In this document: positions 5,433-59,509 of the stretch, piece by piece
How positions within the stretch are numbered: position 1 is the stretch's first letter
Layout: every line of letters starts with the position of its first letter
NCBI RefSeq assembly: GCF_003334315.1
Contig: NZ_QOWR01000023.1
DNA from: Escherichia coli
GTDB taxonomy: Bacteria > Pseudomonadota > Gammaproteobacteria > Enterobacterales > Enterobacteriaceae
DNA: 64,000 nucleotides
Reading direction: 5' to 3' (one strand)
Notes under the pieces: model-generated
What the model saw: only the letters and a program-made list of their open reading frames with translations
What the model was told of the DNA's origin: nothing
The model's database searches: none
Translations under genes and position numbers: made by a program

Positions 5433-7514
5433 TTACGCATTCGAGTAACGTTCCGTCTCCGGCATCCAGCGTTCTATCAGGGCTTTTGCCTGTTGTGGGT
5501 AACGTTCGTGAATATGGCGTGCCAGGCGCTGAACTTCCGGGATCATCGCCTGATCGCGCAGTAAATCCGCCACTTTAAATTCAGCATTACCCGTCTGACG
5601 CGTGCCTAACAATTCGCCAGGGCCGCGAATCTCCAGATCTTTTTGCGCAATCACAAAACCGTCGTTACTGTCGCGCAGCACTTGCAGGCGAATTTGCGCC
5701 GTTTTAGAAAGCGGCGTTTTGTAGAGCAGCACGCAGTGAGAAGCCACCGCGCCACGACCTACGCGCCCGCGCAGCTGGTGTAACTGCGCCAGACCCAGAC
5801 GCTCCGGGTTTTCGATAATCATCAGACTGGCGTTAGGCACATCAACGCCGACTTCAATAACGGTTGTGGCAACCAGCAGGTGTAGCTCACCTTGTTTAAA
5901 CGACGCCATCACCGCCTGTTTCTCGGCAGGTTTCATCCGCCCGTGTACCAGGCCAACGTTCAACTCTGGTAGCGCCAGTTTCAACTCTTCCCAGGTAGCT
6001 TCCGCCGCCTGCGCTTCCAGCAATTCCGACTCTTCAATCAACGTACAAACCCAGTATGCCTGACGACCTTCAGTTATGCAGGCGTGGTGCACGCGGTCAA
6101 TGATGTCGGTACGGCGGGTATCAGGAATAGCGACCGTAGTCACTGGCGTGCGGCCTGGCGGCAGCTCATCTATCACCGAGGTATCGAGATCGGCATACGC
6201 AGTCATTGCCAGCGTGCGGGGGATCGGCGTGGCGGTCATGATCAACTGATGCGGATGGAAGCCCTGCTGCTGGCCTTTCTCCCACAATGCCAGACGCTGA
6301 TGCACGCCAAAACGATGCTGTTCGTCGATAATCACCAGCGCCAGGCCGTTAAACTGCACCTGTTCCTGGAAGATGGCGTGTGTACCGACAATCATCTGCA
6401 CCTGACCGCTGGCGATGGCTTCCTGCTGTGCCAGCCGTGCTTTACCTTTCTGCTTACCGGCGAGCCAGCCCACTTCGATACCGAGCGGTGCAAACCAGTT
6501 GCGGAAGTTATTGGCGTGCTGCTCGGCGAGTAATTCGGTTGGTGCCATCAATGCTACCTGTTTGCCGTGGGCAATCGCACGCAACGCGGCGAGGGCGGCG
6601 ACCAGCGTTTTACCGGAACCTACATCGCCCTGCACCAGACGCATCATCGGCACATCCAGCGCCATATCGCGCTCGATCTCCGCCACTACGCGTGCCTGTG
6701 CGCCCGTTGGCTTGAACGGTAAGGCGGCGAGGAGTTTATTTTTCAGCGTGTCATTGGCGCTCAGCGGCTGGGCATGAAAACGCTGTGCTCCGGCACGTAA
6801 GGCTAACATGCTGAGGTTGTGCGCCAGCAGTTCTTCCAGAATCAGACGACGTTGCGCCGGATGCTGCCCGGTTTCCAGATCGCTAAGCTGTAGCGTCGGT
6901 GGCGGGCGGTGCAAAGTGCGCAACGCTTCCGGTAGCGTCATCATTCCTTGTGACAGTTCCGGCGGCAGGAGTTCTTCAATGGCGCAGGTGTCGAGCAGAT
7001 CCAGCGCCTGGTCGGTTAATTTACGCAGCGTGGCCTGCTTTACGCCTTCCGTTGTTGGATAAACCGGCGTGAGCGTTTCCTGTAATTCTGGCGTGCTGAG
7101 ATCGCCCTGCACGCGGTATTCCGGGTGGATCATCTCCGCACCATATTTACCGCGCTTTGCTTCGCCATAAGCCAGTACACGGCGGCCCGCCGCCAGGCTA
7201 TTTTTCATTGCCGCGCTGAAATTGAAAAAGCGCATGGTGAGGATGCCGGAACCGTCGCTGATCTGGCAGGTCATCATCCGCCGACCGCCGAAGGAGATAT
7301 TGCAGTTCAGCACTTCGCCTTCCACCGTGGCATAAACGCCCGGCAGTAGTTCTCCGATGGGGTAGAGATGGGTGCGATCTTCGTAGCGCAGGGGAAGGTG
7401 TAAGAGTAGATCCTGCACGGTATGCAGGTTGATTTTCGCCAGTTTGTTACTAAGTGCTGCGCCAACGCCCGTTAGGGAACTGAGTGGGACAGCATCTAAC
7501 AGGCGACCTTTCAT
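5433..7514 (-). CDS. recG: ATP-dependent DNA helicase RecG
   Basis: ORF track 5433..7547; start trimmed to MKGRLLDAVPLSSLTGVG (693 aa); helicase motifs GSGKT, DEQHRFG. Confidence 0.95.
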   Translation of the reverse strand: MKGRLLDAVPLSSLTGVGAALSNKLAKINLHTVQDLLLHLPLRYEDRTHLYPIGELLPGVYATVEGEVLNCNISFGGRRMMTCQISDGSGILTMRFFNFSAAMKNSLAAGRRVLAYGEAKRGKYGAEMIHPEYRVQGDLSTPELQETLTPVYPTTEGVKQATLRKLTDQALDLLDTCAIEELLPPELSQGMMTLPEALRTLHRPPPTLQLSDLETGQHPAQRRLILEELLAHNLSMLALRAGAQRFHAQPLSANDTLKNKLLAALPFKPTGAQARVVAEIERDMALDVPMMRLVQGDVGSGKTLVAALAALRAIAHGKQVALMAPTELLAEQHANNFRNWFAPLGIEVGWLAGKQKGKARLAQQEAIASGQVQMIVGTHAIFQEQVQFNGLALVIIDEQHRFGVHQRLALWEKGQQQGFHPHQLIMTATPIPRTLAMTAYADLDTSVIDELPPGRTPVTTVAIPDTRRTDIIDRVHHACITEGRQAYWVCTLIEESELLEAQAAEATWEELKLALPELNVGLVHGRMKPAEKQAVMASFKQGELHLLVATTVIEVGVDVPNASLMIIENPERLGLAQLHQLRGRVGRGAVASHCVLLYKTPLSKTAQIRLQVLRDSNDGFVIAQKDLEIRGPGELLGTRQTGNAEFKVADLLRDQAMIPEVQRLARHIHERYPQQAKALIERWMPETERYSNA

Positions 7515-53592: not shown

Positions 53593-54180
53593 TTACTTTT
53601 GAAAGGCTTTTTTTAAGCTGATTTTGGAAATCAGCTCAGTCAGTGAAAGGACCATTGTTGATCGCACAGCCTGTTGATAGCGCTGAATTTGCATTGCATA
53701 CAAACTGGAGTCTGCTGGTTCAAACTGTGGCGGCGGTGGTAACGCCGCCACGCAGTGCAGTTCACCAAAGGGTCCAAGGATTTCGTCGTCGGTAAAGGCG
53801 TACTCGTTGCCGTCGTGATTTAGCTCTTCACGCAATGCCATCAGCAGTTCCGCATCTTCGTATTCCTGGCGGTTAATGACGCCCAACCCGTAAATGAGTT
53901 TTAAACGCACAGAAAGATCGCCCAGCGGACCATCGCCGTCGAGTAACGGTTCTACAGCATACTTCACCGCGTAATCGTCTTTGCGGAATACCTGAAGCAC
54001 CAGAAGATTTACCGCCTCGGTCAGGAGCTCGACGGCGGTGATCAGAAAGCTTCGCACGGTTTTGCCAGCATTCAGACGCTCAAGCACACGGTTTTCAAAG
54101 GCCTGGGTTTGTTCCATTGTTGCCTGCATATCTGACAATCTGTTATTCGGGCGCAGGGTGTCCTGCGCCTGGTCCACCAT
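53593..54180 (-). CDS. mtlR: mannitol operon repressor
   Basis: 195-aa [34 protein letters not shown]; directly downstream of mtlD. Confidence 0.93.
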   Translation of the reverse strand: MVDQAQDTLRPNNRLSDMQATMEQTQAFENRVLERLNAGKTVRSFLITAVELLTEAVNLLVLQVFRKDDYAVKYAVEPLLDGDGPLGDLSVRLKLIYGLGVINRQEYEDAELLMALREELNHDGNEYAFTDDEILGPFGELHCVAALPPPPQFEPADSSLYAMQIQRYQQAVRSTMVLSLTELISKISLKKAFQK

Positions 54181-55328
54181 TATTGCATTGCTTTATAAGC
54201 GGTTACCGCCTCGGATACAACCTCGCTGTTGGCATCAAGACCGGAAATCTGTGCCAGCGCCGCCTGCGGACCTTTGTCAGCGATCAGTGCTGCCAGTTCC
54301 TGAGCCTGCGGATCATCTTCACTGCGGAAGTGCATTGCAGCGGCAATACCTTCAATCAGGTTTTTATGTGGCAGACCATATTCCAGCGTACCGAGCAGTG
54401 GCTTGATCAGACGGTCGCCAGCACTCAGTTTACGCAGTGGCTGACGGCCTACGCGCTCTACATCATCTTTCAGATACGGGTTCTCAAAACGGCCGAGAAT
54501 TTTCTGGATGTACGCCGCATGCTTGTCAGCGTCAAAGCCGTAGCGCTTGATCAATACTGCACCACTTTCTTCCATCGCACCTTTTACCACCGCGCGGATT
54601 TTCTCGTCGAGAATCGCGTCACGAATGGTCTGATGACCGGCCAGTTTTCCGAGGTACGCGGTTATAGCATGACCCGTGTTCAGGGTGAAGAGTTTACGTT
54701 CGACAAATGCCATCAGGTTGTCGGTTAACTCCATGCCTGGGATGTTCGGCAGTGCGCCTTTGAACTGCGTTTTATCGACAATCCATTCGCTGAAGGTTTC
54801 TACCGTCACTTCCAGCGGATCGTTAGTTGCCGAAGCCGAAGGCGGTACGATGCGGTCAACGGCGGAATCGACAAAGCCAACGTGTTCTTCTACCCACGCT
54901 TTGGCGTCTTCCGGCAGGGCGTTCATCACATGGCCTTTCAGCTGCGTGGTACCGCGTACCATGTTTTCACAGGCGATGATGTTCAGCGGGGATTCATTAC
55001 CTTGTTCTTTACGTTTCACCAGCCCTTTGGCGATTGCCGGAGCAATACGTTCCAGCACAACCGGGCCAACGGCGGTAGTGACTAAATCAACCTGAGCAAT
55101 CAGATCAACGACATCATCACCAATGCTGCTGACAGCATTGACGCCGGAAACGGTATCTACCTGCTCGGTTTCACCAACCACATGTACCTGATAGCTATGA
55201 CGGGCATTCAGGGCATCAAGTACCACCTGATTGACATCGGCAAACGTCAGTTGGATACCCGCGTCTGCCAGCAGTTTACCGATAAAGCCACGACCGATAT
55301 TACCTGCGCCAAAATGTAATGCTTTCAT
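54180..55328 (-). CDS. mtlD: mannitol-1-phosphate 5-dehydrogenase
   Basis: ORF track 54180..55646; start trimmed to [24 protein letters not shown] (382 aa); cat seen at 55326-55328. Confidence 0.95.
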
Positions 55329-55339
55329 AGTATTAACCT

Positions 55340-55557
55340 TCATCAATGTTTTTACCCGAGAGGGCTGGGGTGAGGCTTTTCCCTCACCCAAACCCTCTCC
55401 GTGAGGAGAGGGGCAGCGCCGGATGCGGCGTAAGCGCCTTATCCGGCCTACAAGAACGTGCAAATTCAACAAATTGTGATGCATCCTGTAGGCCTGATAA
55501 GCGTAGCGCATCAGGCAATTAACCCCACCTTCTCCATGTGGAGAGGGTGGGATTGGA
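55340..55557. repeat. REP elements plus GC-rich hairpins in the mtlA-mtlD intergenic region
   Basis: gccggatgcggcgtaagcgccttatccggcctaca and ctgtaggcctgataagcgtagcgcatcaggc (REP), flanked by ccctctccgtgaggagaggg and cccaccttctccatgtggagagggtggg hairpins. Confidence 0.8.
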
Positions 55558-57471
55558 TTACTTACGACCTGCCAGCAGTTCCAGCACTTCATCCACGCTG
55601 GTGGTGTGTGCCAGACGCTCGATGACGGACTCATCATCCAGTGCATTGGTCAGGCTGGTGATAACCTGAATGTGCTCGTTGTTACGGGCAGCAATACCAA
55701 TCACCAGACGGGCAATGTCATCTTCTTCTTCACCGAAGCGCACGCCTTCCGGGTACTGGCAGAACACGACGCCCGTTTTCAGTACGCGATCTTTCGCTTC
55801 AACCGTACCGTGTGGCACCGCGATAGACTCACCCAGATAAGTCGGGGTCAGTTTTTCACGATCCAGCATCGCCTGAACGTATTCCGGCTCAACGTAACCG
55901 CCTTTCACCAGCTGCTCGCCAGCAAAACGAATCGCTTCTTCTTTGGTTGCCGCTTTGCGACCGAGGAAGATGTTCTCCGCGCCTAGCTTGAACAGGTTAG
56001 CACTGGAATCGTCAAAGCTGTCTTTCAGGCTGTCTTTTACTTTCTCTTCGTTTGCCGTGTGGCGTTGGGCAGCAACCAGACGTTCGGTCAGGCTGGTGTA
56101 CAGGCCGCTGTCGAGGAAGTTGGTCAGCGAAATATGCTGTGCCTGCGGAACCTGGCGCATAGCGCGTTCGGTCAGGTCACGGTGAGTGATGACGAGGTCC
56201 ACATCTGGCGGCAGGTTGTTGATCGCGCTGTTAGTAACAGAAATCTGCGACAGACCTGCATCCTGAATTTTCTTACGCAGAACGCCTGCGCCCATCGCAC
56301 TGGAACCCATACCGGCGTCACAGGCAACGATGATTTTACGTACGTGGCTCAGGTCGTTAGTCACATCGCCAGCAGACAGCGGAGATGCGCCTTTAGACTC
56401 AGCTTTCATGTCCTGCATACGACGAGTTGCTGCTTCAATATCATCTTCTTCTTTCACTTTGCTGGTTTTCAGCAAAATAGCAGAGACAACGAAGGAGACA
56501 GCCATCGCCGCACACACACCCGCGATGTTAGCGAAGTAAGCACCTTTTGGTGTCATCGCCAGTACAGCAAGGATAGAACCCGGAGATGCCGGAGAAACCA
56601 GACCACCGCCCAGGATAGTCAGCGTGAACACGCCAGTCATACCGCCGAGGATGACTGCGAGGATCAGACGCGGATTCATCAGCACATACGGGAAGTAGAT
56701 TTCGTGGATACCCCCCAGGAAGTGGATGATTGCCGCACCGCCCGCAGACTGTTTAGCGCTACCACGACCAAAGAACATGTACGCCAGCAGCACGCCCATA
56801 CCTGGACCTGGGTTAGCTTCAATCAGGAAGAAGATTGATTTACCCAGTTCATGGGACTGCTGAATACCCAGCGGCGAGAAGATACCGTGGTTAATGGCGT
56901 TGTTGAGGAACAGGATTTTCGCCGGTTCAACAAAGATAGACGCCAGCGGCAGCATGTCATGGACAACCATGAAGTTAACGCCCGCAGCCAGCATTTTGGA
57001 CAGGGCTTCAACAATCGGGCCAATGCCGAGGAATGCCAGAATAGCGAGGATCATCCCGATGATGCCTGCGGAGAAGTTATTCACCAGCATCTCAAAACCG
57101 GATTTGATCTTACCGTCTACCCAGCGGTCGAAGTGCTTAATGCACCAGCCGCCCAGCGGACCTGCAATCATAGAACCGAGGAACATCGGCATGTCTGCGC
57201 CGACGATAACGCCCATGGTGGTGATGGCACCGACTACGCCGCCACGTTCGCCGCCTACCAGCTTACCACCGGTATAACCGATCAGCAGCGGCAGGAGATA
57301 AGTGATCATCGGCCCGACCAGCTTCGCCAGCGTCTCGTTCGGTAACCACCCTGTTGGAATAAATAACGCGGTGATGATACCCCACGCGATAAACGCGCCG
57401 ATATTTGGCATCACCATGTTGCTGAGGAAACGACCAAAGCTTTGCACTTTGATCTTAATATCGGATGACAT
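55558..57471 (-). CDS. mtlA: PTS mannitol-specific EIICBA
   Basis: 637-aa [35 protein letters not shown]. Confidence 0.97.
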
Positions 57472-57614
57472 AAAAACACCCCTTCTTATGTTTGCTGTCG
57501 CGCAGGCTGGAAGCCCGAGGTTTTTTGTTAATGTGGCGGCAGAGGTAGCCGGACCTTGTAGATACTGCGAAATCTGGCACTGAATCGGTTAACTGTCCAG
57601 TCGACGGCCTTTTG

Positions 57615-57630
57615 TGTGATATCAATCACA
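57615..57630. promoter_or_regulatory. CRP-type palindrome in the mtlA promoter region
   Basis: TGTGA-TATCAA-TCACA. Confidence 0.6.
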
Positions 57631-57731
57631 TAAATATAGGGGGTAGAGAGGTAATTGACGTGACGTTCATCACAAAACGCTTGTGTAAAAAAGCAACAAG
57701 GCGGCGATTTTCGCTAAAAATGGCATTTAAA

Positions 57732-57747
57732 TGTGAGTAGTGTCACA
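57732..57747. promoter_or_regulatory. CRP-type palindrome in the mtlA promoter region
   Basis: TGTGA-GTAGTG-TCACA. Confidence 0.6.
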
Positions 57748-57775
57748 TTTTTGTTTTGATGGTTTGTTGAATCTT

Positions 57776-57791
57776 TGTGATCTGAATCACA
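57776..57791. promoter_or_regulatory. CRP-type palindrome in the mtlA promoter region
   Basis: TGTGA-TCTGAA-TCACA. Confidence 0.6.
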
Positions 57792-58007
57792 AGATATTTT
57801 CTTACGGCGTTCACCTGATGTGATCTACAGCATGTTATGCCTTCGTCATACAATCGTTATGTAACTAAGCAACTCATCACCTCTAAAAATTATTCTTTGG
57901 TGTTATGGCGAGAATCGCGAACCCGGATTATTGTCAAAATATCAGCCTGACTCCCTTCTGGCTGCCAGCCCAAAAACAACACTGATAAACGTGAATCCGA
58001 GGCAGAT

Positions 58008-58370
58008 ATGTTTCTAAACTATTTCGCGTTGGGAGTGCTGATCTTCGTCTTTCTGGTGATTTTTTATGGAATCATCGCGATACATGACATCCCTTATCTG
58101 ATTGCCAAAAAGCGCAACCATCCCCATGCCGACGCTATTCATACGGCGGGCTGGGTGAGCCTGTTTACTCTGCATGTTATCTGGCCGTTTCTGTGGATCT
58201 GGGCGACGCTCTATCAACCGGAGCGTGGCTGGGGTATGCAGTCACATGTTGCGTCGCAGGAGAAAGCGACTGACCCGGAAATCGCCTCACTTTCTGACCG
58301 AATTTCCCGGCTGGAGCATCAACTCGCCGCCGAGAAAAAGACTGACTATTCCACGTTCCCGGAGATCTAA
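58008..58370 (+). CDS. yibI: small inner-membrane protein (DUF3302-like)
   Basis: 120-aa ORF with a hydrophobic N-terminus, immediately upstream of yibH. Confidence 0.85.
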
Positions 58371-58372
58371 TT

Positions 58373-59509
58373 ATGGATCTATTGATTGTTTTAACTTACG
58401 TGGCGCTGGCGTGGGCGGTCTTTAAAATCTTCCGCATTCCGGTAAATCAGTGGACGCTGGCGACGGCGGCGCTGGGAGGCGTGTTTCTGGTGAGTGGTTT
58501 GATTTTGTTGATGAACTACAACCACCCTTACACTTTTACCGCGCAAAAGGCAGTGATAGCGATCCCTATCACGCCACAGGTGACGGGAATTGTTACTGAA
58601 GTCACTGACAAGAATAATCAGCTTATTCAAAAGGGCGAGGTGCTTTTTAAGCTCGACCCGGTTCGTTACCAGGCGCGAGTTGACAGACTTCAGGCTGACC
58701 TGATGACGGCGACGCATAATATAAAGACGCTGCGTGCGCAGCTCACTGAAGCGCAGGCCAACACCACCCAGGTTTCAGCGGAGCGCGACCGTCTGTTTAA
58801 AAATTATCAACGTTACTTGAAAGGCAGCCAGGCGGCGGTGAATCCGTTCTCGGAACGTGACATCGACGATGCGCGGCAAAATTTCCTCGCGCAGGATGCG
58901 CTGGTGAAAGGCTCGGTGGCGGAGCAGGCGCAGATCCAGAGCCAGCTCGACAGTATGGTTAACGGCGAGCAATCGCAGATTGTGAGCTTAAGAGCGCAAC
59001 TTACTGAAGCAAAATATAACCTTGAGCAGACTGTCATTCGCGCGCCGAGCAATGGCTACGTTACTCAGGTACTGATCCGCCCAGGTACATACGCAGCTGC
59101 CTTGCCGCTGCGTCCGGTGATGGTCTTCATCCCCGAGCAAAAACGGCAAATTGTCGCCCAATTTCGGCAAAACTCGCTGTTACGTCTGAAACCCGGCGAT
59201 GATGCGGAAGTGGTGTTTAACGCGCTACCTGGGCAGGTGTTTCACGGCAAACTGACTAGTATTTTACCTGTCGTGCCAGGCGGTTCTTATCAGGCGCAGG
59301 GGGTATTGCAATCATTAACGGTCGTGCCCGGCACGGACGGTGTGCTGGGAACCATTGAACTGGACCCTAACGATGATATCGATGCCTTACCCGACGGCAT
59401 CTACGCCCAGGTGGCGGTTTACTCCGACCATTTCAGCCATGTTTCGGTGATGCGGAAAGTGCTGCTAAGAATGACCAGCTGGATGCATTATCTTTATTTG
59501 GATCATTGA
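58373..59509 (+). CDS. yibH: HlyD-family membrane-fusion / periplasmic adaptor protein
   Basis: 378-aa ORF with N-terminal TM anchor, coiled-coil centre and C-terminal beta domain. Confidence 0.88.

Follow-up and report, generated by a model that had tools for sequence, protein, structure and literature searches.

The window analysed here is the whole stretch of 64,000 nucleotides (64 kb) of Escherichia coli DNA, in which positions 57472–58007 are the exact 536-bp spacer between mtlA on the minus strand and yibI on the plus strand, with a GC content of 42.5%. The spacer is identical at 536 of 536 positions to that of E. coli K-12 MG1655, the strain of the published experiments, so the published K-12 work applies directly to it. 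A 901-bp query (57300–58200) matches 5,405 of 5,426 complete E. coli genomes, with mtlA and yibI annotated there. The genes on the two sides of the spacer are arranged as follows:

53593–54180, minus strand: mtlR, encoding the repressor that docks on CRP pairs (annotation of a matching E. coli genome)
54180–55328, minus strand: mtlD (annotation of a matching E. coli genome, converted to window coordinates)
55558–57471, minus strand: mtlA (ORF list and annotation of an E. coli genome matching the 901-bp query at 100%)
53593–57471, minus strand: the mtlA-mtlD-mtlR operon under control of the CRP array (ORF list and annotation)
58008–58370, plus strand: yibI, a DUF3302 gene divergent from mtlA
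58373–59509, plus strand: yibH, an HlyD-family membrane-fusion adaptor gene divergent from mtlA

The yibH gene is an intact ORF of 378 amino acids in the window and scores as an HlyD/EmrA-type membrane-fusion adaptor. It is annotated as frameshifted in E. coli E2865 (6074–7140, L126), the 901-bp mtlA-yibI query region of which is otherwise identical.

The whole 64 kb window was searched for the CRP core with the pattern TGTGANNNNNNTCACA, i.e., TGTGA-N6-TCACA, and we found exactly three matches, starting at 57615, 57732, and 57776. About 0.06 matches per 64 kb are expected by chance, and none of 100 dinucleotide-preserving shuffles gave three. The three perfect palindromes announced in a preliminary description of this DNA are thus confirmed at 57615–57630, 57732–57747, and 57776–57791. 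Cores with at most one mismatch number four in the 64 kb, and all of them are located within the 177 bp of 57615–57791. Each perfect palindrome has an N6 spacer unlike those of the other two, which indicates that the palindromes are not copies of one repeat. The edges of the perfect sites lie 144–320 bp from the mtlA ATG and their centers at 151.5, 268.5, and 312.5 bp, so that the distance of about 145–320 bp upstream of mtlA given earlier is borne out when measured from the ATG.

Lee et al. (NAR 2026, 54:gkag751, PMC13421365) describe five CRP sites of the mtl promoter, CRP1–CRP5, centered, relative to the S1-mapped start, at −262.5, −219.5, −175.5, −102.5, and −58.5, the center-to-center distances being 43, 44, 73, and 44 bp. 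These authors trace the five sites to Ramseier and Saier 1995 (Microbiology 141:1901) and also cite Figge et al. 1994, both papers being referred to here as cited by them. The comparison with this published map shows that five sites in the window, with centers at 57826.5, 57783.5, 57739.5, 57666.5, and 57622.5, reproduce the spacing of 43/44/73/44 exactly. Three of the sites carry 10 of the 10 core bases, one carries 9, and CRP1 carries 7:

57615–57630: CRP5, TGTGATATCAATCACA, perfect palindrome, center at −58.5, promoter-proximal, essential for activation (published mutant)
57659–57674: CRP4, CGTGACGTTCATCACA, one mismatch, center at −102.5, 44 bp from CRP5, essential (published mutant)
57732–57747: CRP3, TGTGAGTAGTGTCACA, perfect palindrome flanked by aaa...ttt, center at −175.5, 73 bp from CRP4
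57776–57791: CRP2, TGTGATCTGAATCACA, perfect palindrome, center at −219.5, 44 bp from CRP3, essential (published mutant)
57819–57834: CRP1, TGTGATCTACAGCATG, a half-site with 7 of 10 core bases, center at −262.5, 43 bp from CRP2

The three sites first listed for this region were therefore right, but CRP4 at 57659 and CRP1 at 57819 had been overlooked. We hold it to be very nearly certain that the three palindromes are CRP2 (57776), CRP3 (57732), and CRP5 (57615) of the cAMP-CRP operator-promoter of mtlADR, including the MtlR mechanism described below. The multi-site cAMP-CRP control of the mannitol operon proposed earlier is upheld by this correspondence with the published array in a spacer identical to that of K-12 at all 536 positions; the proposal was nevertheless incomplete, as its distances were counted from the ATG while the start lies 93 nt upstream, and the role of the array as a docking platform for MtlR through the 43–44 bp spacing was absent from it. 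The palindromes are real, functional, and already known: this is a rediscovery of a well-studied CRP region of E. coli.

The binding of CRP to these sites and their function have been established by experiment. Purified CRP with cAMP shifts mtl site fragments in EMSA, and chromosomal replacement of CRP2, CRP4, or CRP5 leads to no mtlD expression and no growth on mannitol (PMC13421365). Removing CRP3 changes little, this site adding slightly to activation and forming a pair with CRP2 to which MtlR binds; CRP1 is not required and shows poor occupancy in vitro (Lee et al. 2026, PMC13421365). Deletion of crp abolishes expression of the mtl operon, as do the site mutations (PMC13421365). Genome-wide surveys agree in singling out the same spacer: in CRP genomic SELEX, clones of the yibI/mtlA spacer, 38 in number, formed the second most abundant class; in PhyloScan, it was the top-ranked CRP region of E. 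coli; and CRP ChIP-seq in ETEC gave two peaks that list the exact sequences of CRP2 plus CRP1 and of CRP5 plus CRP4. First described in 1995, with its individual sites analysed in 2026, the five-site array has little value as a discovery. Its value is that of a positive control, in which the sequence alone picked the first CRP region of PhyloScan and the second of genomic SELEX.

One genome per species was scanned for two perfect CRP palindromes 34–64 bp apart, and at least 120 stretches were listed, which are a sample and not a census. Among the matches listed, 14 of the 15 pairs at 44 bp adjoin an mtlA homologue, and all of the mtlA-adjacent pairs are 44 bp apart, save an extra 40-bp pair in Actinobacillus. 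The 44/73/44 spacing is kept in at least 11 other Enterobacteriaceae loci (Enterobacter, Citrobacter, Klebsiella, Superficieibacter, Pluralibacter, Pseudescherichia, and one unclassified MAG), and eight of the 11 also have a site resembling CRP1, 43 bp upstream of CRP2; CRP1 in other Enterobacteriaceae reads TTTGn-N6-TCACA at the same 43-bp distance. The spacing is 44/74/44 in Brenneria, and Orbaceae have one 44-bp pair only. Pairs 43–44 bp apart were also found in Salmonella and Vibrio by Lee et al. 2026 (PMC13421365), with which our comparative results agree.

The comparative loci were picked for a perfect pair 34–64 bp apart, and the conservation of perfect sites is therefore partly built in. 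The pentamers of CRP4 and CRP5 lie outside the search pattern of the scan, save that in one locus the selecting pair was CRP4/CRP5 instead of CRP2/CRP3. Comparisons of 11 other Enterobacterales with E. coli show that the CRP5 pentamers are 93% identical, versus 44% for the N6 spacer, and that the CRP4 pentamers are 91% identical, versus 32% for N6. The DNA between the sites is about 50% identical in these 11 genomes, and the pentamers appear as invariant islands in the alignment. Within the species, four divergent E. coli strains show about two dozen variable positions in the spacer, none of which falls in the 50 pentamer positions and several of which fall in N6.

We considered whether the palindromes could have arisen by chance or be left over from a repeat or mobile element, and play no part in regulation. 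Nothing speaks for such an origin except the AT-rich composition of the spacer (42.5% GC). Against it stand the three palindromes found where 0.06 are expected, a number that no shuffle reached, the N6 spacers that differ among the three sites and so fit no single repeat, the retention of pentamers and spacing across genera while N6 and the inter-site DNA diverge, and the CRP binding and mutant phenotypes already published. The shuffles, the cross-genus conservation, and the published mutants refute this origin, to which we assign a negligible probability.

In the same E. coli comparison, six of 21 variable positions fall in the N6 spacers (30 of 536 bases), which is more than expected among divergent strains. 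The spacers concerned are 57620–57625, 57664–57669, 57737–57742, and 57824–57829; few lineages are involved, and shared ancestry may explain the excess.

The FNR core consensus is TTGAT-N4-ATCAA, and the cores in the mtlA spacer fit canonical CRP-N sites and not CRP-S or FNR sites. It is nonetheless worth asking whether the main reader of the sites could be another protein that recognises half-sites of the TGTGA type, either a CRP/FNR-family regulator other than CRP or CRP together with Sxy at CRP-S sites, since functional CRP sites of the typical kind are commoner than perfect palindromes and, among the matches listed, similar perfect pairs occur in Firmicutes and Bacteroidota, where they presumably serve other regulators. 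However, 44-bp pairs occur only at gammaproteobacterial mtlA loci, with one exception, among the matches listed, and CRP itself shifts the sites with cAMP, while crp deletion and site mutations both abolish expression (PMC13421365). Another main reader is thus highly improbable, and CRP is retained as the protein that reads the array.

The array lies upstream of mtlA-mtlD-mtlR, the mtlR gene included, and its centers, from −58.5 to −262.5, are at distances suited to activation upstream of a sigma-70 promoter. The hexamers of the mtlA promoter are our own reading of the sequence at the distance expected from the published start, and the elements downstream of CRP5 are as follows:

57571–57599, minus strand: inferred mtlA core promoter, with −35 TGGACA (57599–57594), a 17-bp spacer, and −10 CAGATT (57576–57571)
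57579–57592, plus strand: candidate Cra (FruR) operator, ACTGAATCGGTTAA, inside the −10/−35 spacer
57564, minus strand: deduced mtlADR transcription start, the sole position that gives the published site centers, 7 nt downstream of the inferred −10
57472–57564, minus strand: mtlA 5′ untranslated leader of 93 nt, from the deduced start to the ATG

In 11 other genomes, identity is 95% for the −35 and 94% for the −10. The −10 CAGATT matches the consensus at only three of six positions, and it is preceded by TGc at 57579–57577, which resembles an extended −10. A generic sigma-70 and terminator scan of 57400–58100 did not report the mtlA promoter; its one promoter-like match, at the mtlA start codon, is no more than shuffles give. 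The weak −10 and the failure of the generic scan to find it fit an activator-dependent mtlA promoter. The sequence ACTGAATCGGTTAA fits what we take to be the Cra consensus, RSTGAAWCSNTHHW, and is a candidate site, of which the GATTCRG half is conserved in the alignment. Cra and Fis sites exist in the mtl promoter, and both proteins repress modestly (Lee et al. 2026, PMC13421365).

The mtlA leader is 77% conserved. Its predicted fold is no better than that of shuffles (z = 0.08), essentially no covariation was found in a 10-species alignment, and an Rfam scan of 57300–58200 at a permissive E-value gave no match; a structured regulatory leader was dropped on the first two of these grounds. The leader also contains an invariant ACCUC, which could pair with the Shine-Dalgarno sequence GGGGU.

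The canonical class I position of CRP is −61.5. Phasing was calculated at 10.5 bp per turn relative to this position. The angles with respect to the −61.5 face are +17 degrees for CRP2, −34 for CRP4, −51 for CRP3, and +51 for CRP1, so that CRP2 and CRP4 are closest to it. CRP5 at −58.5 is 3 bp, or about 100 degrees, out of phase with −61.5; simple class I activation by CRP5 is therefore not assured. From this arithmetic and textbook phasing, the off-phase position of CRP5 may be part of the reason why CRP5 alone is insufficient. The role of the upstream CRP sites is left open by Lee et al. 2026 themselves (PMC13421365).

The 73-bp gap between CRP3 and CRP4 contains a T-tract block at 57683–57692 (TTTTTTACAC on the minus strand), which is 84% identical in 11 other Enterobacterales, versus about 50% around it. 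To our knowledge, this block belongs to no annotated site. It could be an intrinsic bend or the site of a nucleoid protein; as a required bend or the site of an unrecognised factor, it could also explain why sites far upstream are essential.

The best explanation of the array combines activation by CRP with repression by MtlR. In the absence of glucose, cAMP-CRP dimers occupy CRP2–CRP5, and the dimer at CRP5 (−58.5) would contact RNA polymerase at the weak promoter formed by the −35 TGGACA and the −10 CAGATT. The upstream sites are needed too, probably through an architectural role of the bent CRP-DNA array. The pairs CRP1/2, CRP2/3, and CRP4/5, at 43–44 bp, would provide the geometry for an MtlR dimer to bridge two CRP dimers and repress the operon. 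Upon transport of mannitol, dephosphorylated EII-Mtl (MtlA) holds MtlR at the membrane, leading to induction, and dephosphorylated HPr, the glucose signal, competes for MtlR and restores repression. In this scheme, our sequence analysis supplies the sites, their enrichment above the random expectation, their exact spacing, the match to the K-12 operator, and the conservation in Enterobacterales. CRP binding, site essentiality, MtlR bridging, and membrane sequestration come from published experiments, and we infer the exact position of the start in the window, the promoter hexamers, the Cra operator, and the way in which the upstream sites activate.

MtlR is a repressor without a DNA-binding domain (Lee et al. 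2026, PMC13421365). An MtlR supershift was seen only on DNA with two CRP dimers 43–46 bp apart, the optimum being 44–45 bp (PMC13421365). In the window, CRP1–CRP2 at 43 bp, CRP2–CRP3 at 44 bp, and CRP4–CRP5 at 44 bp fall in this range, and the CRP3–CRP4 gap of 73 bp is the non-recruiting distance: the 73-bp CRP3/CRP4 pair recruits MtlR only after shortening to 44 bp (PMC13421365). The malK CRP sites, 34 bp apart, likewise recruit MtlR only when respaced to 44 bp, and MtlR's sequestration at the membrane by dephosphorylated EII-Mtl, with dephosphorylated HPr as a competitor, was found in the same work (PMC13421365). The same laboratory had found no detectable MtlR-CRP interaction in 2017; the bridging model is accordingly of recent date and depends mainly on a single paper of 2026. 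In addition, a stationary-phase long-term evolution study reported that a 1-bp insertion between mtlA and yibI became fixed, its position not given (PMC7858067). As a change of 1 bp in CRP spacing affects the recruitment of MtlR, that insertion could be a regulatory adaptation.

The array was compared with four known systems. The mtlADR operator-promoter of K-12 is the same locus, with the spacer, the 43/44/73/44 spacing, and mtlA-mtlD-mtlR all shared and no difference between them. In the CytR-CRP complexes, for example at deoP2, tandem CRP sites likewise have two roles, as activator sites and as the scaffold on which an operon-specific repressor makes contact with CRP; however, CytR belongs to the LacI family and also binds the DNA that lies between the CRP sites, whereas MtlR, which lacks a DNA-binding domain, is placed by the 43–46 bp geometry, and the CRP spacing at deoP2 is about 52–53 bp, unlike that of mtl. 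The malEp-malKp region, the comparison case in the published work, also has several CRP sites arrayed in a divergent spacer that lies upstream of an operon for sugar transport, but its malK sites, at a distance of 34 bp, recruit MtlR only once set at 44 bp. Furthermore, the mal region needs MalT and serves both divergent promoters, whereas the mtl array is established for the mtlA side. In the case of Mlc and EIIB(Glc), a dephosphorylated PTS transporter titrates the repressor of its own sugar to the membrane as MtlA does. Mlc binds DNA directly and MtlR does not, so that the parallel lies on the protein side of the circuit, the palindromes having no part in it.

The preliminary description also stated that the same region must drive yibI-yibH on the other strand. 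This holds in the trivial sense that a yibI promoter must lie in the spacer, while for control of yibI-yibH by CRP we found no evidence. Two elements bear on the question:

57824–57854, plus strand: best sigma-70-like match toward yibI, a candidate, TCTACA-19-TACAAT, with its −35 inside CRP1
57863–58007, plus strand: stretch from which a UPEC promoter trap recovered promoter activity for yibI, with none of the CRP sites inside

It is possible to imagine that the distal CRP1 and CRP2, and possibly CRP3, also put yibI-yibH under cAMP-CRP, and perhaps under MtlR, as at malEp/malKp. Several observations lean toward such a dual use: the −35 of the best sigma-70-like motif toward yibI lies inside CRP1, the authors of the ETEC ChIP-seq study gave the CRP2 plus CRP1 peak to yibI, CRP in a divergent spacer often controls both promoters according to the genomic SELEX paper, and the yibI ATG of Pseudescherichia is only about 120 bp from the center of CRP2. 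However, the ChIP-seq assignment was apparently made by proximity alone, with no expression evidence seen, CRP1 is poorly occupied in vitro, and no report of CRP-dependent yibI-yibH expression was found in the literature searched. The array of the same spacing is moreover kept upstream of mtlA where the neighbour is not yibI but yibF (a glutathione S-transferase gene), selA, or a co-directional gene, which indicates that the array belongs to mtlA.

The fragments recovered from the UPEC strain UTI89 point in the same direction. In a promoter trap, inserts of −329 to +151 and of −144 to +90, counted from the yibI start, were recovered as urine-induced, and a 5.6-fold induction of yibI was measured, with which of the inserts not stated. 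The shorter insert corresponds to window positions 57863–58098, allowing for a 1-bp deletion in UTI89, and contains neither the CRP sites nor the TACAAT element; it was recovered for yibI all the same. Within the trap stretch, the blocks 57890–57922 and 57934–57949 are conserved between E. coli and Citrobacter. The locus thus differs from a shared divergent array of the mal type in that the array persists without yibI and the promoter activity of yibI resides on a CRP-free fragment. On balance, we regard dual use as unlikely. A composite proposal, in which CRP1 and CRP2 also control yibI-yibH through the TCTACA-19-TACAAT element overlapping CRP1 and, separately, the TTTTTTACAC block is a bend or factor site, is decidedly unlikely. 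If dual use were true, an uncharacterised putative export system, composed of a DUF3302 membrane protein and an HlyD-type adaptor, would be tied to cAMP, and bridging of CRP1 and CRP2 by MtlR would link yibI-yibH to the availability of mannitol. The reading preferred here assigns the array to mtlA.

TCTACA-19-TACAAT is listed for the spacer in the RpoD-holoenzyme SELEX of Shimada 2014, but under mtlA. The Shimada 2014 entry for yibIH, TATACA-18-TATAAT, was tried as a yibI promoter and rejected, being absent from the spacer and found instead at window position 36009 on the plus strand; the same motif is listed there for both yibIH and the htrL region, and the yibIH row is apparently a duplication or error. 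The candidate −10, TACAAT (57849–57854), is polymorphic at 57850 and 57851, reading TAAAAT in Q65 and UTI89 and TGAAAT in two other strains. In E. coli GPEC1054 (L005, 4508–7160), an IS21-family element (istA/istB) is inserted between CRP2 and CRP1, at window position 57807/57808, with a CTTACGG target duplication. This insertion leaves the mtl promoter otherwise intact and cuts it off from yibI and from CRP1, which is dispensable.

The comparative scan also returned pairs at other loci. In a Tannerella sp. MAG (L071, L072, and L073), tandem 23-bp units each contain a perfect TGTGA-N6-TCACA, and a 46-bp peak in the histogram of pair spacings was discarded as an artefact of the 23-bp tandem repeats of this one MAG. 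A second conserved perfect CRP pair, 57–58 bp apart, was observed in Enterobacter, Superficieibacter, Citrobacter, Yersinia, and Serratia (L021, 3736–3808; L011, L030, L040, L091, and L103). In L021, this pair sits between divergent ORFs for an MFS transporter and a short-chain dehydrogenase, which are presumably yqcE and ygcW, the region second in PhyloScan.
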